A stretch of DNA of 63,123 nucleotides, the filler included, from Rhabdomonas costata (taxonomy: Eukaryota): assembly GCA_019059605.1 (NCBI GenBank). It is 43 parts of 43 records of this genome, joined end to end, with 100 filler letters (N's around TTAATTAATTAA, not from the genome) between each part and the next. Parts side by side here need not be neighbours in the genome. Positions count along the whole stretch, not along the records: positions 17,655 to 19,025 come from JAHMHO010017942.1; positions 19,126 to 20,491 come from JAHMHO010017943.1; 41 more parts are not named here. One strand, written 5' to 3'. Positions 1 to 43,800 of this stretch are shown here, piece after piece. The position numbers were made by a program, and so were the translations under genes. Each line of letters begins with the position of its first letter. The first letter of the stretch is position 1. Under the pieces are notes generated by a model that saw only the letters and a program-made list of their open reading frames with translations, searched no databases and was not told the DNA's origin.

Positions 1-27
<27 letters not shown>
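1..27. repeat. (GT)n microsatellite at window start
   Basis: Perfect GT dinucleotide run. Confidence 0.9.
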
Positions 28-33
<6 letters not shown>

Positions 34-152
34 CATGTTTCGCAGCAACATTGTTTTGACGTGTGCGAATGAGTAAGTTAGGGTAGGTGGGTGTATGCAA
101 TCCAGCGGTGTAGTACACATTGCAACATTGCACTGGGAGATGCCCCGCACAC

Positions 153-1317
<1,165 letters not shown>

Positions 1318-8283: not shown

Positions 8284-10300
8284 GTATTTCTTCATGTTTC
8301 TTTGTCTTTGTGGCGGCGGGTTTTGACGTGAGGTCTTTGCGGGTCTGGCCATTGATTCAACCAGCATGCATCAGACATCATCACCGAAAGGCATTTCCCA
8401 TTCCTAAATTTGCGTACAGCGTGAGCACAACGTATTCTCACTGCCACAGGTTGTTATTTGCTTTGTCCTGAATGTGCCGCACTGGTGCATGTCCTCCGGT
8501 TCATCTGTGCCGCCCACTCACCTGAACGAATCACCACACCCGTACGTTTGGCGGAATGGACACCGCAAAAACAGTAATATTTTTTTGGGTTGCTTTGGGT
8601 GACTGAACTCAGATTTTCAGCCTAAACCTTGCTTCTCCACCGTGTACCCAGCAGGATTTGGGATGCAAATGGCAGCACAACCGCACAACCACTATTTTTT
8701 GATGGCACATCTTACCCTTACCACGACCCNNNNNNNNNNNNNNNNNNNNNNNNNNNNNNNNNNNNNNNNNNNNTTAATTAATTAANNNNNNNNNNNNNNN
8801 NNNNNNNNNNNNNNNNNNNNNNNNNNNNNTGGGTGGGTGGGTGCGGCCCGGAACATAGTACTTATAGTCTTCCTGCTGAGGTCCGAGGTAGGATACCGGT
8901 CCGGGGTTCGGGGTTGCCAAGTGAATGCCCCAACACTTTGTGGTTTATCACGAGCAAAATCGAGGGACGGGGCTAACACGCACATAAGGCAACATAAGGC
9001 ATCCCCCCTCACACCCGCCACAATTGGCAAGCCCACCGTCGGATGATCCCTGGGATCATCTGAGGAGAAGACTTTGCCTATCCCTCCCCCACTGGCATGC
9101 GCACCACACATACCCCTCAATGGTCACCAGGGTGTCGAGGCGGCCGGTGCCGTTGCTGAGCACGATGCCCTCGGTGATCTCGATCCCAATGAAGGCTGTG
9201 GTGCGGCTGCGGCGGAGGTTCTCCGCGGCCAACGCGCTGCGCAGACAAGGAGCAGCAGCAGCTTAACACCACTCGCCTTCCTTTCGAAGTGTGCTGGATG
9301 GTCACATGCCATTAAGCGGAAGCATTTTGCTTGCTGGTGCACGTGAATGTGACATGGGTGGTGGTAAGATCCGCCGGAGCTGAAGCTTCTTTGGATTGGG
9401 TGCGTCGTTGCGGGTCACTCTCTTCTTCTAATGGCGCTGCTGTAGGTGCGGCCACAGTTGTTGCGTTAGCAATCATGGCAACGGCGCTGTCGCATTGAAC
9501 GCGCTGGGGACAAGGTCTCTGATGGCCCTCTTGAAACGCGCACACATCATATTGCAGGTAAGAGCAGGGCAGCACACCTGGAGCGGGCCATGCGCTCATC
9601 GGAACGGAGGGAGCGGCGCTCCTCGGCTTCGTTCTGCTCCACACCCCACCGTGAGGCAGCTTCTTCCTGTAAACACAAAGACACGTAACGTATCCTCAAG
9701 GCCCCACTCAGGACAATGAACTTAATGTGGCGGCCGCTGCGGCCCTTGCGGCTGAACCACCAACCACCGCAATAGAAAGTATGGATTTCACCGTGAACCT
9801 CCCTGCTCGTGAGCTGAGTAGTGATTAAGTTCCTGGAGTTGGCTGGCCGGTGCACCGCAGCTGCTAGCTGACAGACAGGGCCTATCTCTCTCTCTCTGTG
9901 TGTATACAACTGGTGCACAAAACAGGTGCACAGAGTGGTTCTGTGTCGGCATATGCGTATGACAACCAGGGGCTCGATTATAAAATCTTTCCGGGTATTT
10001 GCTCGGCCCTACTTTGCTTTGCGCACCTCCCTTTACGTTACTCCCGCTCCATGAAGGACCCCGTGAAGAGAGGAGAGTAAGCCATTCGTCCAAAGGAGGG
10101 GAGGGGCAATTCTTTCTTGCAAAGGCCCAAGATGTATTGGGTGCTCCACCGCGCTCCACGGCCTCGTGGGTGCTGGAGGTTGGGGGCGTCACACACACCC
10201 NNNNNNNNNNNNNNNNNNNNNNNNNNNNNNNNNNNNNNNNNNNNTTAATTAATTAANNNNNNNNNNNNNNNNNNNNNNNNNNNNNNNNNNNNNNNNNNNN

Positions 10301-10460
10301 CAGTCAAAACCACTCAGAAACTAGTCAAAACCACCGCGAAACCAGTTAAAACCAGTTGAAATTAGCTAAAATCACCATACAAAACCAGTGACAAATCAGT
10401 CAACCCAACACAAAACCATACAAAACCAAACAAAACCACTGAAAACCCACCCCGAACCAT
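10301..10460. repeat. Degenerate short tandem repeat (AAAACCA-core units)
   Basis: Recurring cagtcaaaacca / aaaccagtt / aaaacca units. Confidence 0.5.
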
Positions 10461-11771
10461 ATACGCCGACACCTCCCAAACGCGGAATTGCGGATTTAAT
10501 ATTCCGGGATTCATATTAACCGGGACCCTGCCCAGCGAAGCTACAGAGAAAACTGACAGAGAAAGGGTGAGTCAAACACATGTAGTGGGAGTTACGGAAG
10601 CTTCTGCCAAAATGGACAATGTTTCGGGGCAATTGAAGGGTCATCCACGAGGAGGTGTGATGGCATAGTTGCCCAAATCCTATCTTTTGTTTTGCCACTC
10701 TGGCCATTTGCAAAAGAGATTTGGACATAGTAACCTCCCCAGGGGGGAGAGAGCACTCATCGCGTGTCGATCCTCCATGGATGGATGCGCATTCGATGTT
10801 TTCCCTGGCACCCCCGCCCAGCAGCGGATTTTTGGAGTTTCCAGCCAAGTGCCGTCCGCAATTTAAGCGCAGGGACGCGGCCTCGAAACGCCTCGCACCC
10901 CAATCAGAGGTTTAGCTCGTCGGGGGCTCCTTTGAGGCTCACGAAGAGGTCCCTTGCTGAGCCTTGTTCAGCTTAGCCAGGATCTCCTCCACGGAGGAGC
11001 CCACGATGGAGGAATCCGCGCCGCTGCCCGCCGTGGGAAAGGGGAAGAAGGGGCACCGCGGCATTGGCGGGGGCTCGTCGTCGTCCTCCTTCCCCTTGCG
11101 GGCCGACCACAGCCTCAGAGAGAGCACTCTGAGGACGGAGGATCAGCATCAGGAGGATAAGCGAACAATGGCACGGATAATCCGTCGAGCACAGAAATAA
11201 GAGAGAGTGGTGATACCAAAACCCTTCTTCTTTGGAACGCATTGTTTTTACGTTGTGCAGAAGTAAGCGAAATTTCAGGGAAAACATGACTGTCTAAACA
11301 GAATATGAGTAGTCCTGGGCAGTAAATTCGGTACGTCTGTCTGCGCTGGTTAACGTGGTGTACCAGTGTCGGCAGCCCATTTAAGAAGTACACGCCAGGC
11401 CGAATGGATGCATCCCCTTCTTGATCACTTTGTTGAGCCCACCATTTAATGAGAGCATGAATAGCATGAGCAGTAGTAGTATAAGCAGTCTAAGAATAGT
11501 TAAGAATAGTTACAGCGATAGTAGTAATATAGTAGTATCAGCATGAATGATTCCCTCCGTCACAGATGCTCCATTGCGAAATAATTGAAGGCCAGCTTTC
11601 TTTCAGCAGCCGCACTTCTTCGGCAAAGGCAAACCATAGCTTCCTTTTGAGAACAAGCATGACCACCCCCCNNNNNNNNNNNNNNNNNNNNNNNNNNNNN
11701 NNNNNNNNNNNNNNNTTAATTAATTAANNNNNNNNNNNNNNNNNNNNNNNNNNNNNNNNNNNNNNNNNNNN

Positions 11772-13142
11772 GGGTTTGTTGATTTCGTCGAACTGGCCCC
11801 CGGAGCGTGGAATGAAGGCGTAGCCTGTCGCGCCGCCCTCCCCCACGAGGAGGTTGGTGAGCAGGAATGCCCCCGGGGCGTAGTCCCCTTCGGTGCAGGT
11901 TCCCATCACAACCTGTAGATGGGAAAGTGGCAGAACTGGCGCATTGTTAGCACAATTGCGGCGGCGCGCAGCATCGCTCAGAATTTGGCATTGGGCAGGA
12001 CTGCGGTGATGTGAAGGCATGCATAGCCCAGAAAAAAAAAGAGAGAGGGGTTCTTGCCACGATATTGCATCCACCACCTCCCCACCGCCAGGTGGCCATG
12101 CACGCAAGGGGACTTTGCAGAGGCAGCGGTCAGTTGGCATTGCTCGAGGCCCGTGCTACACACTAAGTAAAATACCTGGGTTTAGGTGGAAATGCACGTG
12201 CACGCCGGTTATCATTGCTGCGAACAGGCTCCATATTCTTCTCGTTCTCCGGTGCCACTTCAACGAAATCAACGAGATTCCCAGACATTGCAAAACTTGA
12301 GGAACACGTCCCCGTTCAACATGCAACAAAAGAGCGCCTCCCGTCCCACGGGAATTATATGGTCCACCCGCACTGCTCGAATCAAAAGGTGAGCGAGAAC
12401 GGCCAGGGAAGGGGGGGCGGTGGAGGAAGGAGTGAACTGCCTTGATGGCGTCCTTTCCGACTCCCGCCTGCAGTCCAGTGCCGTTGACCCACAGTTGAAG
12501 GGTCTTACCAGAGGTTGCGGTGGCAGGAGAGACCCAGAACGACCTCTTCGACCATGGCCCTCCCACATTGACCATTCCCAGCAGGCTCCATGACGTGGCT
12601 CCGGTGTACAAGTAGCACACGGCGAAAACCCCGCCCCACCCGAAGGTCGCCGTCCAGGACACGGAGGTGGCCGATTTCTCGACCGGAATCGCCGCAGTGG
12701 TGCCCGGGGCCAGAACCCTATGCTCACACCCGGGAAAGGGGTTTTGCAGTGTCAAAAACTTGATCACGCCATAGTCACAAGCAGCGGTTCAGGGTTCATG
12801 GGCTCCTGTCTTTTTGACCAGAGCTGCACACAAAGCTGAGAGGGTAATCGAGGGCGACGTAATACTGGTTTGCATGACGGGATAGCGGAGTTCTTCGTCC
12901 CCAAATCCAAAACAGGGAGGAGTCCTGCCGGTCCAGCAAAGAATGAGCCATGCACACCCCGAGGTGCAGTTCCCCACCATGAGCTGCACCACGTCCTCCG
13001 GGCTGAGGCCGAACCCCGGCAGGGTGAACGTCACCATCACCGTCGCCAAGGGAGGCGAGGGCACCGTGGAAAAGCTCGTCGAGAAAGTGGGCCCCGGTAC
13101 GGCCAGGGCGTCCAGGGTCAGCCACCCGCCTTGGTACGGGAG
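11772..13142 (-). CDS. Large repetitive, probably extracellular beta-rich protein (three exons, partial)
   Basis: Exons 13142-12958, 12717-12441 and 11912-11772 join in frame. Internal repeat: GP..F.T.PSPP...FTLPGFGLSPEDVVQLMVGNCT vs GP..F..SPATA...LWVNGTGL...KDAIKVVMGTCT, plus a VCY..W..LG.V.V motif. Confidence 0.7.
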
Positions 13143-18807: not shown

Positions 18808-19208
18808 TGTTCGTGAGAGAAGCGAACGCAAGGGTTTCCGTCATCTATGAAGATTCGCTCCAAAAAATCAGTCCCTTGCGGGACGTGGGAGCTGGAATAC
18901 CCAAATCGAAAACCCCGAAGGCAATAGCCCTCTTTTATGCTATCTGCTGGACGCGAAAGCCCGGCAGGCATATGACGCGAGCCTGGAAGCGGGGCGCGGA
19001 AGGGAACAGGGGCATCCCGCTGTGTNNNNNNNNNNNNNNNNNNNNNNNNNNNNNNNNNNNNNNNNNNNNTTAATTAATTAANNNNNNNNNNNNNNNNNNN
19101 NNNNNNNNNNNNNNNNNNNNNNNNNTTTGGGTTTGTGTAGCAAAATTATATAATATTTTATAAACAAACAAGATGATATAAAGACAAGAAAATATAAAAA
19201 GATATAAG

Positions 19209-19655
19209 ATGACAGAACTAAAGGAATATCTAAAAGGATATGAATGTGAGAAAGAAGCGACACATACAATGATGAAATGTAAGAAATGGATAAGTCCAGG
19301 AAAATGGCAAATACCGAAAGAAAAACGAAAAGAATTTTATACATTGTATTCAAAAGAAAAAGAATATGCATTTGTTGAACGACATGATAAGAAAACATCA
19401 CCAATAATAATTGATTTTGATATAAATCAAGAGGATGAAGAAAGGAGAACAACAAATGAATTTACAGAAGAGATAATAGAGGCATTTTATATAGAAATAA
19501 AAAAGTTTATAAAAATGAATAAAATGAATAGTATATGTTATGTAATGATGATAAAGAAGAAATTGAATAAATTAAATTTTTATTTAAATAAAAATTTAAT
19601 TTTTTTTACTTTCAAATGCACTGAATCCTATCCAACAGCCTATCAATATAGATAA
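19209..19655 (+). pseudogene. Truncated NCLDV D5-like helicase-primase, N-terminal AEP primase region
   Basis: ATHT...GKWQIP...EFYTLY...FVE...PIIIDFD (DxD motif I). Similarity ends near 19550 before the catalytic His motif; the frame then runs through the palindrome into the convergent gene. Confidence 0.72.
19569..19602. terminator. Perfect 34-bp AT palindrome, Mimivirus-type 3'-end/polyadenylation hairpin
   Basis: aaattaaatttttattt|aaataaaaatttaattt is self-reverse-complementary and overlaps the stop codon (19596) of the minus-strand gene. Confidence 0.75.
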
Positions 19656-20200
19656 AATGCTCCACATTGGTACACTTGTTATTTTATATGCTACTAAAAT
19701 TCGTGTTATTGATGGTTCTAATAATTTTATTAAACTTAAACTTAGTATACTACCAATAATAAATATATCCTTTTCATTGTATATATTGTCTAAAATACTA
19801 ATTGAACTTTTGAAAAATATACTGTATAATATACCTATTATTATATTCACTATAACACCAACACTGACTGTTTTTAATGACATATTTTTACCATTTATGT
19901 ATGTAAGAATAATTGTTTTATATTTATTTTTATAAATGTAATATGATACTGCAATAAATGATACAATTATTCTTATATATGCAATAATTAATGTTGTTAT
20001 TTTCTTATTTTTACCATCATGCATTATTTTATGAGTCAATAATAATAAAATTATTGGTATCAACATACATAATACGACAAACACACAATCACAATATTTT
20101 GATGATGATGATTTAATATCATTTCTTCTTGTATTTCATCAGTTATAACTTGTTCAGATTGTGTATCATTATCTTGATTTTGTACATTTAAATCAGACAT
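19596..20200 (-). pseudogene. Viral-type multi-pass membrane protein gene with a frameshift near the 5' end
   Basis: ATG at 20200 (MSDLNVQNQDNDTQSEQVITDE) is out of frame with the hydrophobic ORF 20084-19596 (~5 TM segments); frame switch near 20135. Confidence 0.6.
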
Positions 20201-20246
20201 TATATATTTACATCATAAAAATATAGCTGAAATAAATTAAATTTAA

Positions 20247-20254
20247 AAAATTGA
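20247..20254 (+). promoter_or_regulatory. AAAATTGA Mimiviridae early-promoter motif
   Basis: Exact octamer ending 42 bp upstream of the ATG at 20297, in a 96-bp divergent intergenic region. Confidence 0.65.
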
Positions 20255-20296
20255 AATATTTATTCTATATATGTTTATAACAAATAAACAACAACA

Positions 20297-20491
20297 ATGA
20301 AATATAATTCTGTATTTGATTTGTCGGAGTCGAAAGAAGTGGAATTTAAAGAATTCCGTTTATTGATACATGAGATGTTTAATGAAAATGAAATTAAAAA
20401 ATTTATTAAAAATTCAAAAGATAATTTGTTATTTGACAAATTTTTAACATGTGTCAATAAAAATCTTGAATTATATTTCAAAAAACCCACC
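20297..20491 (+). CDS. Schlafen/AlbA_2 (AAA_4)-like domain protein, 5' part
   Basis: MKYNSVFDLSESKEVEFKEF carries the ES..VEFK signature of AlbA_2/Schlafen; cut by the contig end. Confidence 0.6.
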
Positions 20492-23400
20492 NNNNNNNNN
20501 NNNNNNNNNNNNNNNNNNNNNNNNNNNNNNNNNNNTTAATTAATTAANNNNNNNNNNNNNNNNNNNNNNNNNNNNNNNNNNNNNNNNNNNNTGTGTTGGG
20601 TGTGGGTGGTTGTTTGTTTTTCGCTTGGTTTGACATTCGAAAAACAATGTCATTCGGCGCTTTCATGGCAATCTTGCCTCACTAGCGGACTGAAAACCAC
20701 CGAGCACACCAACCACATAGAGTAGTTATCAAGGCCTTGGTGTTCAAATTTGTTCTCTATTTACCCACAAAACCACCACCACCACCACCACATGCCCACA
20801 GTGCAAGCACAGCACTTGCGAACATTTACACGCACCAGCGCAGCCTTTCCCTATTGACTCTTTTCTTTTTGCCACCGGTCGTGCTCAGGGCACCGCCGAA
20901 ACACTTCACGAACCACCAATTGACAAAGTCGTGACGTTGCTGAACAGTTAAACCCAGATACCAGTGGTAAAAATTTGTTTTCATCGTGTGGTGGTTTTGA
21001 AAGCTACCACCGATTAAAGCCGCCACCCCGGGTAACAGAACCTGGCACGCCGCAAAAGCATGCGCTACCGGCTCCGGTGGTGTGAATCCGTACTGAATGG
21101 AGTGGGACTGTAAAGGTTTACCTTGTGATATGGTTAAGTTCAGCGAGACCGCACGTACCGTAACGACGCTTTTACTAGATCTCTTCTTTTGTGCTACCAT
21201 GTTGATGATCATTTGTGTTTTTCAGGGCACTCTACACCACTGCTGCAGCACCCTTCCGCGTATGTGTTTCTTTGCTTGTATTTCTGGTATCATTTTTGCT
21301 TTTTGTACCAACCAGAGTGCGGCCAACGGCCTCCAACCTTCCGCCCGGCAGCAGCTTCTATGCGCTGCATCCGGCAAGACCCCCGCCAGCCAGTCAGCCC
21401 TGACACACATATACATGCACACACAAAAATACCCTGCACTGGACCTCTGCACCACTTTTTGCTGCACTTGTTTTTCCCCTCGCACCATTTTCCGACTAAA
21501 ACTTTCCGACTTCAGATTCTGTCCTTAGCAGCCCCTTACCCTTACCCTTTTCCGGAGCTCCTCTGCCCTCATAATGTCAGAAACCGATTCTTTTCACCAC
21601 TCTTTTCTCCTTGCCCGGAAACACATACTCCAACAACACTACTTTCACCCACATTTCCCTTAACAAAATTCCCTTTTGGCCAAATGGCCTTTCTGGACAT
21701 TCCACATGACAATTGCTACTGTCACTTCGAGCTTTTCTTCCTGCTTTTGGTTCCACTTTTCCCTCGCGTACCTTTTGATCACTTGACCCTACCGCATTAG
21801 ACCAAAACTAAAGGAATCTAATTGTAAACCACCTTTTGCTAGACTAAAACTCCCATCCCAACAAAACTACTGGATTTGACCCAAAACCTTAGGCCAATAA
21901 ATTGTTGTCCCATGCTTTTCTTGCACATTTGCCTTCCTTTTCCAAGTTTGTACACACACCCNNNNNNNNNNNNNNNNNNNNNNNNNNNNNNNNNNNNNNN
22001 NNNNNTTAATTAATTAANNNNNNNNNNNNNNNNNNNNNNNNNNNNNNNNNNNNNNNNNNNNTTGTTGGTTGCTGGCGATTGTTTTCCTTGTTCATTTGAT
22101 TAAAAGTCGCCACCCCACCTTAGAGCTACCCCGCAGATTTCGAGTTCTCTGTCTTCTAAATGACTATCTGGCCCTGTCGTGCGCCATAGTGATGAGCTGG
22201 AAATGCGTATTGGGCGCTTCCCATATCCCGCACCGCAAGCAAACACACACAGAAGGGTTCTCATGCTCCTGCAGTTTATTTTGGCTGCATTGTGCTGTGC
22301 TGATTAAAAGCGGTGTTCGTTGTCATGGGCTTTCTTCTCTGAGTCGGGGCGGCCGGTCACTCCCTATTTGCGGATTTTCTTCGCTCTTTTATGTGACGCT
22401 TCTCGGGTTCCCACTTGGGCTGCGATATCACAGCTTTTTGCTGCTTTTGTTGCTCTGAAAACTCTGATTTTACAACGGCAATGTGCCCTTCCCGGTTGAC
22501 ATTTTGCTTCTGTGCCGCAGAGGTCCCTTTCTATGGAGCGCTGGGTTTTTGTGACCAACTATAGCACCCCATCCACTTTATTTCTATACCCTTATATGCC
22601 GACGGCCTGCTTCGGCTTAGCCCTCTTTATATGCCAAATCAGTAATTTTCCTCCATCGAATATGAGTGTAGTGTGTTGAAGAAAGTTGTTATTACTGCAG
22701 AGGTGTTTCGCCTTGTCTGTTGTCCTCGGCACCTCGGCTGACACGCCTGTGAGTTACCAAACCCCATTCCGGCGCTGCTGTAGCACTGCACAGAACCAGC
22801 CACACAACCATCGGTTAATCTGTGGCTGGCTTGAGTGTGGCCACTATCCACAGTGGGAGACGGGGGTGGGGGTGTAGGAGCGTTTGCTTTGTGCTGTTCC
22901 TAACAGTGAAACCCGGAATCTGCGGCCACCGTGACCTCATTCGGTTCTCTGGTTATCTTTTGTTTTGCTTCCCACCATCTCTCAGATTACACTCATTCAA
23001 AAAACCCTGTAACACACACGACTTAAGCAAAGAATGATATCGGAGGGGAGCCGTGCCCCTGGGGCCCTCGCAATGGTTGAGCTGCTGCTGGTGGTGGTGC
23101 TATGGCTGAGACCACAGTGGAGTGTGGAAGCAACTGCATCCATCGGATGCTACCTGAATCCCAATGGCGCAGTATGAGTTTTAAACGAGATCCACAGCCC
23201 TGCACCGCATTAGGATTGTCCTACATACTTACCGAAAGACGTTTTAATATCGGCGAGAGCTGGGCGCTCTCTACCTTAGCTAAGAATCCACTAAAATTTG
23301 TAACCTAGCAACACAAAACGGGCTCAAGTAACCGTGTTTTTATATGTGCAGCCATGTGTGTAACCGGTTTACCAAGCTAAAGTCGCTACAGTAAACTCGG

Positions 23401-23537: not shown

Positions 23538-23570
<33 letters not shown>
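23538..23570. repeat. (CT)n microsatellite
   Basis: Directly visible. Confidence 0.9.
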
Positions 23571-29697: not shown

Positions 29698-30318
29698 TCA
29701 GTGTGCCGGGATGGCCACCCAAGGTTTGGGGTCCATGGGCTCATTTTCAAACAAGCCCTCCACGCACAGCGTGAATGGGTCCAGATGAGCCTTCACCTCG
29801 GACTTTCCGGCAGGAGGGGATACCCACAAAATGGCCCCCGTCACAGCAAAGCTGGGCGCCAGGGTGAACTCAAACTGTCCCTCGAACCGGTAGTTCCGGT
29901 CAAATGGCCCCTGTTTTGGAAAGACCCCGGAAAGAGACCACAACTGATGTCCTCCCCGAAGCACCTGCGACGTGAACTTCGCTTGGTACCTGAACTGGCC
30001 ATCCGCCACAACGTTATACAGACTGCTTGGGCACAGTGCCATCAGCTTCCTGTACCCCTCCAGAGTACCAAACTCGCTGCACAGCCGCTGAAGTGCGGGG
30101 TAAGACGGGAAAAGGGTCCGCAGGAGCGCCTTCCAAAGTTCTGGGGATCGCACCGCAACCTCCCATCGGTGGCAAACTTCTCTCAAGGAAAGCAAGTCTT
30201 GGCAGCAAAGGTGGTATAGAACCACTTCCAGAAGCTCCGAGGGAAAGGCTGAGACAGTTGAGGTGGGCATTGGTCTGGCAAGGGCAGTGGGTATTGCAGA
30301 CTGTGGGGCTTCCGCCAT
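29698..30318 (-). CDS. F-box protein with unidentified C-terminal domain
   Basis: FPSELLEVVLYHLCCQDLLSLREVCHRWEVAVRSPELWKAL is an F-box motif; ATG 30318 lies just after a ctccag acceptor; stop at 29698. Confidence 0.85.
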   Translation of the reverse strand: MAEAPQSAIPTALARPMPTSTVSAFPSELLEVVLYHLCCQDLLSLREVCHRWEVAVRSPELWKALLRTLFPSYPALQRLCSEFGTLEGYRKLMALCPSSLYNVVADGQFRYQAKFTSQVLRGGHQLWSLSGVFPKQGPFDRNYRFEGQFEFTLAPSFAVTGAILWVSPPAGKSEVKAHLDPFTLCVEGLFENEPMDPKPWVAIPAH

Positions 30319-30985
30319 TATCTGGAGAAACAAGCACTCTGGAAAGTAAGGTGACAGGAGGAACCGTCCAAGTTGTGCAAAGAGCTCCCCGTCCATCTCA
30401 GAGTCATCATTTTTTTGGGGTCATTTCTGAAAATGCCTTTTTCAAAAAAACCGCCAACCTTCCGTTGCGCAAACCACACGCACAGCAACCTTACGCTATC
30501 CATTCCATGCCATCACCTGCTTCCGCTCACCGAATCAACATAGGCAGAACTTCAGAATGTCTAGAATTCAAACAAATTGGACAACCATGCAACGCGGTTG
30601 AGCGGCTAACACCATGCCATCATATCCAACCGGCCGAGGCCAAGACTTGAAAGTGGGCAAACACCAACACCCCCCAGACATGCAGTGGTGGGGAGGAAAC
30701 AAAAGCAAAACCATCACGCGAGCACCATGCCACAGCGGAATAAAGATGCATTTCGGAACCAGGCTCTTCGAGGGGCACCAAAAACNNNNNNNNNNNNNNN
30801 NNNNNNNNNNNNNNNNNNNNNNNNNNNNNTTAATTAATTAANNNNNNNNNNNNNNNNNNNNNNNNNNNNNNNNNNNNNNNNNNNNGTTGGTGGGTTCTTC
30901 CTTTTTGCTTAAACATGACTTCCGTGTGACTGCATTGGTTAATTTTGGACTTCGAGTCCTATCAGAAGTCAATGCCCATTCACAG

Positions 30986-31366: not shown

Positions 31367-32459
31367 GTATGTGTGCGCGAGCGCTTGGGAGTTGACGAAG
31401 AGTGGGAGGCCATAACAGAACTCTAGACGTGTTAGTCTGAGTTTCGATGGGATGGTCATCTCTGTACGACGGCGACAGCGGCAAGTTAGAAGACGAGAAA
31501 GAAGCGGCTGGGAGCGCCAAACACGGGTGTGGAAGCTTTCACCAGGAAAGGTTTTCTTCATCCGAAGGTGAGAAGTATGTATGGGTATGTATGTGTAGTG
31601 GTTCGAATGGGTCCACCGCCCACAAAGAAAATTTTCATCTAACAAGTGCTGCAATTTCTTCGTTGCAGAAAAGAGGTCAGAAGCCCAGACTACAGAAGCA
31701 ACTCATCGGAAACGGTGTAGTTTTCATGGGAGCAGCAAAGGAGATGATATGCAAGTGCGCTATATATATGAGAGCACAGGTGGGCGAGCAGCAAAAAAGG
31801 CCCCACGGAGTCAGCTGCCCACAATCGTTTCCCGTTTCAAGTGTCTTTTCCGCCAAAGTGATAGTGTGAATAACTTTTTGAGGTTACGTAACGACACCAA
31901 AACGGGTGTAGTCACCTCAGGAGGAGGGCCCAGTGCTTTTTTTTTCTTTTCCCCTTCAGCCCAGTCTCTCATTTTCACCCCCTTTTTTCGGCCCTTCTCG
32001 CAGGAGTGAAGATCCGAAGACGATTCCCGAGCCCAACCACGAAGGCTAAATACAGTCAGTGCAGACTCCCTGCAATACAGCAGACCAGATAGTTTTTTAT
32101 CACCCCCTGTAGAGGAAACTCACCTGTCCATGCCCATCCTTCACGCCCCCCGCGCTACTTCCTCTCACTTCCACCGTAGCCGATTCTGTCTGTAGCACCG
32201 CTCCCGCAACGAGAAAGTGGGCCTGGCTGATAGTTTTGATGTGTGTGTGTTTTNNNNNNNNNNNNNNNNNNNNNNNNNNNNNNNNNNNNNNNNNNNNTTA
32301 ATTAATTAANNNNNNNNNNNNNNNNNNNNNNNNNNNNNNNNNNNNNNNNNNNNGGGTTTGGTTCCCGTCAAGGTCGAAGAAATTATATGGATTTGAATGG
32401 CCTATTGTGGATGAGTAGAAAACCCGCACTTACAACCGGTCCAAAGGACACACGCGCAC

Positions 32460-33227
32460 CCGTGATAGGCCCTGCTCCAGGGCCTGCTGCACCTCCTCCG
32501 TCGAGGCTCCAGAGATATATATGATCTCCTCCAGTGTGGCGGCACGGCCAAGTTCCGTTAGCACCGCCTGCGCCTCCTCGGTTAGATTACGTAGCAACTT
32601 ACGTCTCCTGGTCGCCCTCTCCATGAAGGCCTTGTAGAGATCGCGAAGTGTCTTCCACACGTCGCCCTCTGTGGATGCGAAGCGGATCGTGGATCCGGGA
32701 ATGGGAAAGGTGAACGCATTCCGTTCAGCCACATCTAAAAAAAATGCAGTTCACTCTCCATCCTCTTCGGAAAACTCAAAGCAAATCCTACAAGTAGTTC
32801 ATTGTCACCTTCCTTCCTTCCTTGACGACTTGACTATCAAAAGCTCTGCACCCAAGCACCCAATCTTCTCCGGCTGGCAGCCTTTCCGAGGCTAATGAAC
32901 TGTTGTTTTCTCACAGCTGCGTTCTTGTGTCGACACACCCTTTTGAGTTGTCTTGGAACCTTGAAAATTGGCCTTGTGCGCAACCATTGCCGTCGAAAGT
33001 GTTCCCCTGTTCTCTGAGAAAGCAGAAGTTTTTTCTGTTTTCTCAGAGAACAGAGGAACACGGAAAGAAGCATAGGTGTTTTGCGACAGGTTCGAACCTC
33101 GGATCAGATCCGCGTTGACCTTGGCCACGCCCTGCGCAGAGAGCCAGCCCAGCATAACTTTCTCGTCCGCAGCAAGGGAAAACCCCAGCCGAGCCTCAAG
33201 CACATCCACAATGGAGTACTTGGTCAT
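32460..33227 (-). CDS. Unidentified protein, first two exons
   Basis: Exon 33227-33098 (MTKYSIVDVLEARLGF...) joins exon 32734-32460 in phase 1 with GT-AG borders. Confidence 0.6.
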
Positions 33228-33823
33228 CGTAAAAAAGGAAGCGTAAAAAAAAAGGCAAATGCAAACTGAAAGACTGACGGAGCACAAGGGGACAGCACAG
33301 TTGACAAAACACGTGCGATTTGCTAATTTCTGAAGAATCAGTAGAAGCGGGAAATCGCAAAGGGTGTTTTCGGAAACAATAAGACCAACCTCTCATGACC
33401 CTGTTCCACTGAAACCCACCGGACAGGGGAAACAGAAGATGTGTGTGTGTTTCCCTATAGCCCGCTATAGACCCCTTGGGCATTCCATCCTCTAGTAGGA
33501 ACTGATTTTTCATCTGCCCGCCTCGAGCGAGCTGCGATTCATCTGGATGCATTATTCAAAAGAAAAATGAAGGGTGCACAAGAATCCATTCTAATCACAA
33601 ACAAGAAAACCGCATTGCATTCATCATTGCAGGAAGCGATGCAAGACATGAACACCATATCTGCCGAGGTCCTGCTGAAGACTAGTACGACAAACCTGAC
33701 AACAACCCCCAAACACCCAACACNNNNNNNNNNNNNNNNNNNNNNNNNNNNNNNNNNNNNNNNNNNNTTAATTAATTAANNNNNNNNNNNNNNNNNNNNN
33801 NNNNNNNNNNNNNNNNNNNNNNN

Positions 33824-40800: not shown

Positions 40801-43800
40801 AAAAATTCCTTTCACAAAAAATTCCTTTCTCCGCTGGGCACATTACACTGACCGAACGCAAACACACCTGAACATGCAACTCACGATTCCATTCAGACAG
40901 TACACCACTCAGCCCCATCCCTAAAATGAGGGAGGTCTTGTCGTAGGCGCACGGGACCACGTTGCTCATCCGGAAGGCTCCCCGAACTTGGGAACGGAGG
41001 AGGGAATATTGACCATCAAACGGCGAAAAACTGCTAATAAGCCCTGTAACCTCTATATTCCAAGTATTGGGGTGATTNNNNNNNNNNNNNNNNNNNNNNN
41101 NNNNNNNNNNNNNNNNNNNNNTTAATTAATTAANNNNNNNNNNNNNNNNNNNNNNNNNNNNNNNNNNNNNNNNNNNNGTGTTGGTGTGTTTGGGTTGTGG
41201 TGGTCCTGCTTGTTTGTTTTTTCCTAAGTCTGTCACCGGCCGCCTGCCCCAAGTCTCTCCCCTTGATGTTTTGCTGCCCTTCTTGTATCTTGGGTTTTGC
41301 ATGCTGGATGGCATTCCATTATGAAAGCCCCAGCAGTCGTGATTGGTGGCTACCCCTGTTCTGACTTGGCGGTGAAGAACACCCCCAGCACACAAAAAAG
41401 GTCCAGGAAATCCCTAACCAAGGCGCGCGAGCTAATGCACTCCGGCGGTTTCCCTCGGATTCTCTGTGGAGCTGATCGCTTTCCGGGCACGAGCAGCTGT
41501 GTGCACTGATCCAATACCTTCATTTGAGGAGCTGGGGCAGTGGTATGTGTCTTCCTCCCCCCTTCCAGCTGCTCGATTCATTGCATGCAGCAAGCAAGCC
41601 TTGGCTTTTGTCCCACGCCCTCTCGTCAAATACATAGGAAGTACGAAAAAAAAAACGAAAAAAAACGATGCAAGTAAAAAATGCCGTCGACATCAAAGTT
41701 CCCAAATTATTCGTGCAACTAATTTCAGAAATCGCCAACAGAAGCATCTTTCCTCGGCATTCCTTCCCATGCATCCCTGGCAAAGTCCACGCCATTTCCA
41801 CTGGGAACACAGCCACGCACTGCTGGACCCCTTTTCTCTCGCCCGGACCGGGTAAGGGGGTCCCGACGCGTCGACAGGAGAGGAGAGGGGATTGCCGTCC
41901 TCATCGGCGGGATCTGAGGCAGTCGAAGTGGAAGAAGTGCTCGCCATATGCTTTGCGCTATTTTCCGCGGGTAGGATTTTGCCCAAGGGGCGTTCGCGAC
42001 GAGACGGACACAAAAGAAAAGAAAAGGTGATAGCGATCTGTAAAAAAGCAACTTTGAGTCCGAAAATATGGCGGTGTTTAAGCATCACTCCAGCTCACCG
42101 CATGCCTCACCCCTGTTGTGGGTTCACATGTCCGTCTCGTTTCCTGCGAATATTCAGAAGCAAAAAAATTACCTCCCCAAAACTCCCATGGAAAGCCACC
42201 AGTATTTATGTCACCGTGTCACCGTGGCGGGGATCAACAACAACCCAGTGTCTTGACTATCGCTGAATGAAGAGTGCCGCCGAGTGCTCCACACAGTCAT
42301 TCTTGGGGGACGCCCGCAACCACAATTATTACACCCCCCCCCCAAAAAAAAAGGCGGCCGTAATTTACTTGTCAGAAACCGAACATTCGAACAGTGTCCG
42401 CAAGCAAAACGTTCTGCACGATCGCCTCGGCTCCCATGGACATCATCCAAAATTACACCGATTGAGCAAACTTAAGCGAACTTACAGTCCCAGAAGCAAA
42501 ATTCCCTTGAACAGCAAAGGTGCAATAGCACAGCTCTCCACTGCCACNNNNNNNNNNNNNNNNNNNNNNNNNNNNNNNNNNNNNNNNNNNNTTAATTAAT
42601 TAANNNNNNNNNNNNNNNNNNNNNNNNNNNNNNNNNNNNNNNNNNNNGTTGTGGGGGGTGCAGGAGAAATGGGCATGGGTGGACCGTTGGTGCACCCCCA
42701 AGAAGTAAAAGAGGTAAAAATGCCTTTTATTTGCTGGTCGTATACGCCCTCGTGTGCACTCGGTCGTATACTCCCTACAAGTATGAAAGCCAAATACTGA
42801 ACCCCTCGTCTCGAAGCATACGCTCCTCGACTTGGGGGCACTTAGGAGCCTCGCTGCGTTTCGTTTTGTTTTGGGTAAAATGTCTGAAGTCAAAGTTTGC
42901 GCGGTGACGTCTACCCCTTAGATCATTAGCCGTTCGCATTGTTGGAATGCGTTTTTTGGATTTCGTAACTTTAGTTTGGTTCCCCGTTTCCCGTCTCTTA
43001 CGTGCGGCCGGATTGACAGATACTCCAGAAAGATCTTCACTTCCGAGATCATTTTTGTGCCGCCCATCACCACGAAGCCCAGCACGCACTGATTGACAGG
43101 GACTGGCATGAAATAACTTCCAGCAAAGCAGTCAAAGACAACACTAGGTCTTTCAACACATGTCCATCTGTCACACCACCACCTCCAACTCTACTCAACC
43201 AAATCCAGTCGCGAGAAGAGAGATTATACAGGATGGTACACGTATAAAAAAAAGCACAAACCAAAGCAAAGCGGGCCGTGGTCCATTCCGCGATTGCGCC
43301 TTCAAGCGGTGGTTTGCTGAAGAGACTGGCTGCGAGAGCCGAAGCAGCCGAGGCGGCACAACAGCGCCGTGTACCCCGAAAGGGTGTCCTCGCCTGCTGC
43401 TCGCCCACGCCGCACTCTCCCTCCATTCCTCGCTGGAGATATCCCCGTCCCGGAGAGCCAGCCGGTACCCAGTGCCGCGGGTGTGTGGGGGTGAGACCCG
43501 CCACACCCACAGGCTTCCTCAAAGGCACATGCCTCGGTGACTCTCGCTCCAAGCCCACCGGTGCGTCGCTTCGAGACGCGCGTCGGGCTGACCAGGGGAA
43601 AAGGGGTCTGCTCCATTGGATGGGGAAGGGGCTTTCCGCCGAACAGTTCTCACGGCCACTGCACAAGGTTTTGGGAACACGCTTGCTCTGCTCCGCAAGC
43701 GGGAGCTTCACAGAGAACCAGAACCGAATCCGCCACACACGGCGCCCTACACCACAGAACCACCTTTTATTGTTTTGAAAATAGCGAAGCAAAAAGGACC

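Follow-up and report, generated by a model that had tools for sequence, protein, structure and literature searches.

A very AT-rich contig of giant-virus type, with a truncated D5-type primase gene, among the contigs of a Rhabdomonas costata genome assembly

The window analysed here, a stretch of 63,123 bases from the Rhabdomonas costata genome assembly GCA_019059605.1, consists of 43 separate contigs, each of 1363-1378 bases, which are linked by N runs that enclose a TTAATTAATTAA spacer. One of these, contig 14 (1366 bases, positions 19126-20491), is the exact extent of a stretch that resembles giant-virus DNA and is the subject of this report. Its GC content is 21.7%, compared with 45.0-58.9% in the other 42 contigs, and even its richest 150-nucleotide (nt) window, at 31% GC, does not reach the minimum for such windows in any other contig (at least 33%). 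Four open reading frames (ORFs) are relevant on this contig, namely ORF1, the convergent ORF2, a 46-codon ORF next to ORF2, and ORF3 (Table 1). Together they leave only spacers of 12.5-15.7% GC, the ORFs themselves having 20-26%. A preliminary description of this DNA had presented the contig as an AT-rich outlier with densely packed genes, and both statements hold, as the 150-nt windows do not overlap with those of the remaining contigs and about 90% of the contig lies inside ORFs.

The same description recognised the N-terminus of a D5-type primase in ORF1. This identification is confirmed by a match to the Pfam family AEP_C962R (PF23162; E 7.5e-14, bit score 52.8 with a cut-off of 23), a family of archaeo-eukaryotic primases (AEPs), and by 25 relatives among 1.84 billion representative proteins. 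In the PF23162 alignment ORF1 residues 18-121 lie on profile positions 1-107 of 190, and a profile made from the N-termini of 149 relatives covers residues 1-122 only (E 1.7e-30). Solid homology therefore extends from residue 1 to about residue 122, corresponding to 19209-19574. Within this part ORF1 has kept the residues that are invariant in the alignment with its relatives: H19, G31-K32-W33, E57, H59, P65, and the aspartates D69 and D71 of the DxD metal site, which in ORF1 takes the form IIDFD (motif I). Motif II, [DNE]G[LIVFM]H[IVLF], which contains the catalytic histidine and is found in 137 of the 149 relatives, is missing from ORF1. When 28 relatives were compared with all frames of the contig by tblastn there was no second match better than E 0.013; by this search and by the extent of the Pfam match, the motif III half of the AEP domain, PriCT_2, D5_N and the superfamily 3 (SF3) helicase are absent from the contig. 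These alignments make ORF1 the initial ~120 residues of a D5-type primase, to which ~30 unrelated codons are attached. Without motif II and everything downstream it cannot be an active primase and is, as judged from its sequence, a relic or a short paralog.

A continuation of the homology to the end of ORF1 was considered and rejected on two grounds. BLASTP alignments with the relatives P0007 and P0005 run to residue 148, beyond the palindrome described below, while the profile of 149 relatives ends at residue 122. The tail of ORF1 (residues 114-148) was also compared with the motif II region, with a mean score of 17.5 versus 17.9 +/- 1.05 in shuffles; 183 of 300 shuffled tails attain the observed mean and 212 of 300 the observed maximum.

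The relatives of ORF1 are primase-helicases of giant-virus type. Among the 25 proteins found by phmmer at E<=0.001, six have E<=1e-10 and none E<=1e-30, and the best, P0001, is 48% identical to ORF1 (E 4.6e-25). Thirteen of the 25 were scanned with Pfam; all thirteen have PF23162, seven have PriCT_2, three have D5_N, and one has DUF5906 plus a VapE-like helicase part. The closest full-length relatives are about 1000 amino acids long and have the AEP-PriCT_2-D5_N/DUF5906 build that is typical of the giant-virus D5 protein. A profile search among longer proteins gave 160 matches at E<=1e-5 from 3696 candidates. Among the matches listed PF23162 is present in 120 of 120, mostly together with PriCT_2 and D5_N or DUF5906 and in some cases with intein domains. 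Precomputed Pfam annotation places intein/homing-endonuclease domains (PF05204, PF05203, PF14528) in P0058, P0079, P0080, P0093, P0096, P0099, P0103 and P0109. Virus names are attached to only two of 20 looked-up proteins, both from metagenome-assembled genomes (MAGs), the Faunusvirus MAG (P0009) and the Satyrvirus MAG (P0040); the remaining names are automatic ("P4 family phage/plasmid primase-like"). In IMG/VR, 20 of 122 pattern matches were confirmed as ORF1 relatives (25-43% identity). Contigs named GVMAG account for twelve of these, and the remaining eight come from other records, 21,922 to 1,259,197 bases long; the one IMG/VR record searched for it, the 175,441-base record behind L005, has a nucleocytoplasmic large DNA virus (NCLDV) major capsid gene (E 3.3e-57). 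In tblastn searches ORF1 had no match in 50,697 phage records or in 72,556 plasmid records. ORF1 by itself retrieved nothing through the word index of longer proteins and nothing in IMG/VR, and a 28-nt exact word from ORF1 had no match in IMG/VR or in the metagenome contigs of the Joint Genome Institute (JGI). The only solved structure reached by the profile is the primase C962R of African swine fever virus (ASFV; E 1.4e-4), through the PriCT part that is missing from the window.

In a quick maximum-likelihood tree (65 rows, 137 kept columns, midpoint root), ORF1 groups with six metagenome proteins, P0001-P0004, P0006 and P0026, with a support of 91 in the Shimodaira-Hasegawa-like approximate likelihood ratio test (SH-aLRT). 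This set is nested in a group of 30 rows (SH-aLRT 89) that also contains the Faunusvirus and Satyrvirus MAG proteins. The position of the ORF1 sequence is compatible with an Imitervirales-like origin without establishing such an origin. Taken together, the family of ORF1, its relatives and the gene layout support the part of the preliminary description that assigned the contig to a giant virus (Nucleocytoviricota). The further part, an affinity with the Mimiviridae, is plausible; it draws on three weak items, one hairpin, one octamer at chance level and the tree just described.

Some loci of the relatives have features of their own. In L008, a record of 143 kb, a 418-residue ORF with an AEP domain lies directly upstream of a 944-residue D5-like ORF (8480-12769), and in L015 (229-5850) two full-length D5-like primase copies of 926 and 927 residues stand in tandem. 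In L021, the closest JGI metagenome relative (1783 bases, 22% GC), the AEP N-terminus is split over two frames (1135-1500). Beside this primase piece L021 has a 330-residue ORF (3-992, minus strand) with a GIY-YIG-like start and CCHC zinc knuckles, both judged by eye.

The second feature that bears on the origin of the contig is the palindrome at the 3' ends of ORF1 and ORF2, which reaches 19566-19605 if one mismatch is allowed. Arms of its length were attained in none of 1000 dinucleotide-preserving shuffles of the contig (mean 8.0, largest 16). As RNA it folds with -12.6 kcal/mol (z -3.89), and none of 200 shuffles folds as well. It had been described as a perfect intergenic palindrome. It is perfect but not intergenic, being inside the ORF1 frame, which passes through it to a stop at 19653, and overlapping the stop codon of ORF2 (19596-19598), which sits in its right arm. 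The break of homology in ORF1 (about 19550-19575) coincides with the palindrome. The contig has a single 3' junction, and the palindrome occupies it, which makes one instance. In the Mimiviridae, transcripts are reported to end and to be polyadenylated at hairpin-forming palindromes whose sequence is not conserved (PMC4402537, PMC6163669). By analogy, the palindrome is likely to be a hairpin transcript-end signal common to the convergent ORF1 and ORF2. Because the palindrome lies within the ORF1 frame, a transcript of ORF1 that ended at this point would lack a stop codon.

The octamer AAAATTGA, a possible early promoter element of the Mimivirus type, is present in a single copy, in one of the three upstream regions of the contig. 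It has been reported within the 150-nt upstream range for 45% of Mimivirus genes (PMC5294985), and it is named together with hairpin terminators among the marks by which even partly sequenced Mimiviridae may be recognised (PMC6163669). In DNA of 22% GC such an octamer has almost no weight as evidence, unlike the palindrome, which does carry weight.

The other ORFs add little to the assignment. The first hydrophobic stretch of ORF2 starts upstream of its first ATG, and the 46-codon ORF is either a small gene in its own right or the N-terminus of ORF2 displaced by a frameshift. For ORF2 there were only sub-threshold Pfam matches, a best Atlas score of 0.82 (level 0.9), and 198 candidates among proteins of 89-284 amino acids, none of which scored. 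As ORF2 has no relatives a frameshift cannot be shown. Two genes of the contig had been called disrupted; for ORF1 this is correct in that it is truncated, and for ORF2 a frameshift is plausible. A 92-codon ORF antisense to ORF2 (19657-19935, plus strand) is probably not a gene but a consequence of the A/T-rich codon usage of ORF2. ORF3 had been thought to be AlbA_2-like, but only its short stretch ESKEVEFKEF resembles the N-terminal signature of AlbA_2 (PF04326). This proposal is not supported by the searches, in which the 65 residues at hand gave no Pfam match at E<=10 except to a sub-threshold phage family, a best Atlas score of 0.85 (under 0.9) with no AlbA_2 cluster and, by the pattern method, nothing related in IMG/VR. 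The single-sequence AlphaFold model of ORF3 is all-helical and of low confidence (predicted local distance difference test 58.4), and the last four ORF3 codons fall in the primer-derived contig end discussed below. In tblastn searches with ORF2, the 46-residue ORF and ORF3 against 26 related loci nothing fell below E 0.4, and therefore no gene order is common to the contig and the relatives of ORF1.

The ends of the contigs show how the sequence was obtained. A G/T-only run of at least 8 nt opens 28 of the 43 contigs and an A/C-only run of at least 8 nt closes 27. At least one such run is present in 39 contigs and both are present in 16, the AT-rich contig included, with a typical length of ~10 bases; as background, 1.0% of 1032 internal positions begin such a run. 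Some kits for whole-genome amplification work with G/T-rich degenerate primers. The runs are probably the remains of quasi-random amplification primers, each contig being roughly one amplicon, and the first and last ~10-13 bases of the contigs may be non-genomic. The AT-rich contig has passed through the same amplification as the remaining contigs. Because both of its ends are primer-made, a junction with host or any other DNA cannot be present, and the missing host junction is uninformative in either direction. Where assembly contigs are primer-bounded amplicons, missing junctions or genes broken at the edge must not be taken as biology. Longer G/T words at some contig ends resemble a common primer tail (for example 20592-20621, the 3' end of 32354-33723, and 41178-41204), and dinucleotide repeats open two contigs, (GT)n at 1-27 and (CT)n at about 23540-23568.

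The remaining contigs are of a different kind. None of the contigs in the window is of mixed composition and, by 150-nt GC windows, there is no virus-like island in the other 42. An Rfam scan of the whole window found no tRNA, rRNA or other family. When the 44 longest open frames of the 41 other contigs with a frame of at least 100 codons were searched with Pfam there was one match, to an F-box domain (PF00646, E 7.1e-8; 29701-30420, minus strand). Such a scarcity of matches fits a eukaryotic genome with few long exons.

Table 1. Features of the AT-rich contig, in coordinates of the window
Feature	Position	Strand	Basis or remark
ORF1, 148 aa (amino acids), N-terminal remnant of a D5/C962R-type archaeo-eukaryotic primase	19209..19655	+	Pfam, relatives, profile
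Perfect A/T-only palindrome, 34 nt, 17-nt arms, no loop	19569..19602		shuffles, RNA fold
ORF2, small multi-pass membrane protein, 162 codons from GTG, 156 from first ATG	19596..20084	-	about five hydrophobic stretches
46-codon ORF with acidic N-terminus, in another frame, overlapping the ORF2 start	20060..20200	-	GC 25.5%, like the coding parts
Divergent intergenic region, 96 nt, 12.5% GC	20201..20296		base composition
AAAATTGA octamer, possible Mimivirus-type early promoter element	20247..20254	+	43 nt upstream of ORF3 ATG
ORF3, first 65 codons, open at the contig end	20297..20491	+	no family, no relatives
G/T-only contig end, 13 nt, probable amplification-primer remnant	19126..19138	+	28/43 contigs alike
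A/C-only contig end, 13 nt, probable amplification-primer remnant	20479..20491	+	27/43 contigs alike

We favour the reading that the contig is non-integrated DNA of an undescribed, very AT-rich giant virus that was present in the sample, by infection, as prey or as an attached particle, rather than an old insertion, and we would give this reading an even chance. The fragment would be a single amplified piece of an undescribed AT-rich Nucleocytoviricota genome, for which the Mimiviridae/Imitervirales kind is plausible. Its ORF1 has kept the DxD metal-binding motif and lost the catalytic histidine motif and the later domains. ORF1 and the convergent ORF2 would end at one palindrome, and in the viral factory this palindrome, as an RNA hairpin, would set the 3' end and the polyadenylation site of both transcripts, as the 'hairpin rule' of Mimivirus suggests. 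The A/T-rich divergent spacer with AAAATTGA ahead of ORF3 might perhaps act as an early promoter, although the indications for this are weak. All three ORFs are open, and from the base frequencies of the contig we estimate that about one in ten random codons would be a stop.

Several observations weigh against this reading or against its Mimiviridae part. Relatives were found for only one of the three ORFs, and that gene is truncated; no NCLDV hallmark gene is present on the contig. Only one of the 43 contigs is of the AT-rich kind, which does not suggest a heavy infection. One frameshift in an ORF2 gene of ~200 residues is plausible, but a mistake in amplification or assembly could also have produced it. 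Other NCLDV orders are not represented by an outgroup in the tree, and ORF1 is not enclosed by any starred branch. Hairpin ends are also known outside the Mimiviridae, as the AT-rich Pithovirus is reported to follow the hairpin rule (PMC4402537), and a promoter containing AAAATTGA has been reported for an iridovirus (PMC5294985). The octamer itself is at chance level: 0.83 copies are expected in the contig and 574 of 1000 contig shuffles have at least one, so that what is suggestive is only where it lies. In the 26 related loci taken together it is barely enriched (129 copies seen, 104.9 expected) and thus does not mark the relatives of ORF1. The octamer listed in the preliminary description is present, but as evidence it is weak.

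The preliminary description preferred a decaying giant endogenous viral element (GEVE), integrated in the nuclear genome of the host. We regard this as unlikely. It would account for an ORF1 that is cut off after ~120 residues and lacks a motif that most of its relatives have, for a possible frameshift in ORF2 (the hydrophobic start upstream of the ATG and the 46-codon ORF with coding-like GC in the other frame), and for the presence of only one contig of the AT-rich kind; eroded elements of this type have been reported in protists (PMC12455990). Against decay in a host genome are the lack of host-like sequence in the contig, a composition that has not drifted towards the host, and the lack of a virus-like island in the other 42 contigs. 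The palindrome is still perfect and the ORFs are still open in spite of the frequency of stops among random codons. In giant-virus contigs, too, there are AEP copies that are truncated or additional (L008, L015), and the AEP N-terminus of the 22% GC metagenome relative L021 is likewise split over two frames. The preference for a decaying endogenous element is not supported, and non-integrated viral DNA is the somewhat more likely reading.

Two other origins appear improbable. Small giant-virus-dependent elements may carry this type of AEP, and the contig could belong to one of them, such as a virophage, a polinton-like virus or a transpoviron-like plasmid, that is AT-rich and uses the promoter and terminator signals of its giant virus; virophages and transpovirons are reported to have transcriptional regulatory elements in common with their giant viruses (PMC11464507). 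The contigs that carry the closest relatives of ORF1 are short (1.4-18.7 kb) and do not reveal the type of genome. The giant-virus D5 build of the closest full-length relatives, the nesting of the ORF1 clade among giant-virus MAG sequences, and more distant relatives on records of up to 1.26 Mb make such an element quite improbable. Still less probable, and to our minds very much so, is an AT-rich cellular contaminant (a bacterium, an organelle or another AT-rich eukaryote) that carries a primase fragment by chance. GC content alone would fit several AT-rich organisms, and ORF2 and ORF3, having no relatives, exclude nothing. Against such a contaminant are the outcome of the exhaustive scan, in which ORF1 had only 25 matches in the 1.84 billion representatives, with the thirteen scanned proteins all of the C962R/D5 type, and the lack of an ORF1 match in the phage or plasmid collections and of any tRNA, rRNA or other Rfam family in the window. 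Very short spacers and convergent genes with a common hairpin are, moreover, a viral layout.

Of the giant-virus lineages seen in metagenomes, which number thousands, very few have a known host. Protist assemblies are well known to contain giant-virus sequence, and the AT-rich contig is a new and very small example of this. Where a viral fragment was amplified together with a protist cell whose identity is established, it offers an inexpensive lead to a host-virus pair. Here the lead is thin, consisting of one 1.4-kb amplicon with one recognisable but truncated gene. One amplicon cannot show infection, co-sampling or insertion, and it is no basis for the announcement of a new host-virus link. 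It is possible, though we hold it to be rather unlikely, that the contig is the earliest sign of a giant-virus lineage none of whose members has been named or cultured, and that the eukaryote from which the other 42 contigs come is a true host of this virus or has recently taken it into its genome. That the lineage may be new is suggested by a primase clade composed of metagenome proteins only, with 48% as the best identity among all the representatives searched. If it is true that the virus infects or recently entered this eukaryote, the two would be a new host-virus pair.

The contig can be compared with several known systems. The ~120 residues of ORF1 align with the N-terminal half of the AEP domain of the NCLDV D5-like primase-helicases, which include ASFV C962R and combine PF23162, PriCT_2, D5_N and an SF3 helicase. 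The contig differs from them in that the alignment stops at profile position 107 of 190, in the lack of motif II, PriCT_2, D5_N and helicase, and in a best identity of 48%. In comparison with the AlbA_2/Schlafen-type domain (PF04326), ORF3 has neither a profile match nor an Atlas cluster, and its low-confidence model is all-helical. In common with reported GEVEs, the contig is DNA of giant-virus type that lies within a eukaryote assembly and has one or more broken genes; it differs in showing no junction, host-like flank or shift of composition towards the host. The early promoter of the Mimiviridae is highly prevalent in upstream regions of that family. The contig, which is too short for a measure of prevalence, has one AAAATTGA copy, not above chance, of a signal that is not exclusive to the Mimiviridae; as in Mimivirus, this copy is upstream of a start codon and, at 43 nt, inside the 150-nt range. 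The hairpin rule of the Mimiviridae is likewise not exclusive to them, and the contig departs from it in having one palindrome only, placed within the ORF1 frame. It agrees with the rule in having an A/T-only perfect palindrome at the common 3' ends of two convergent genes.

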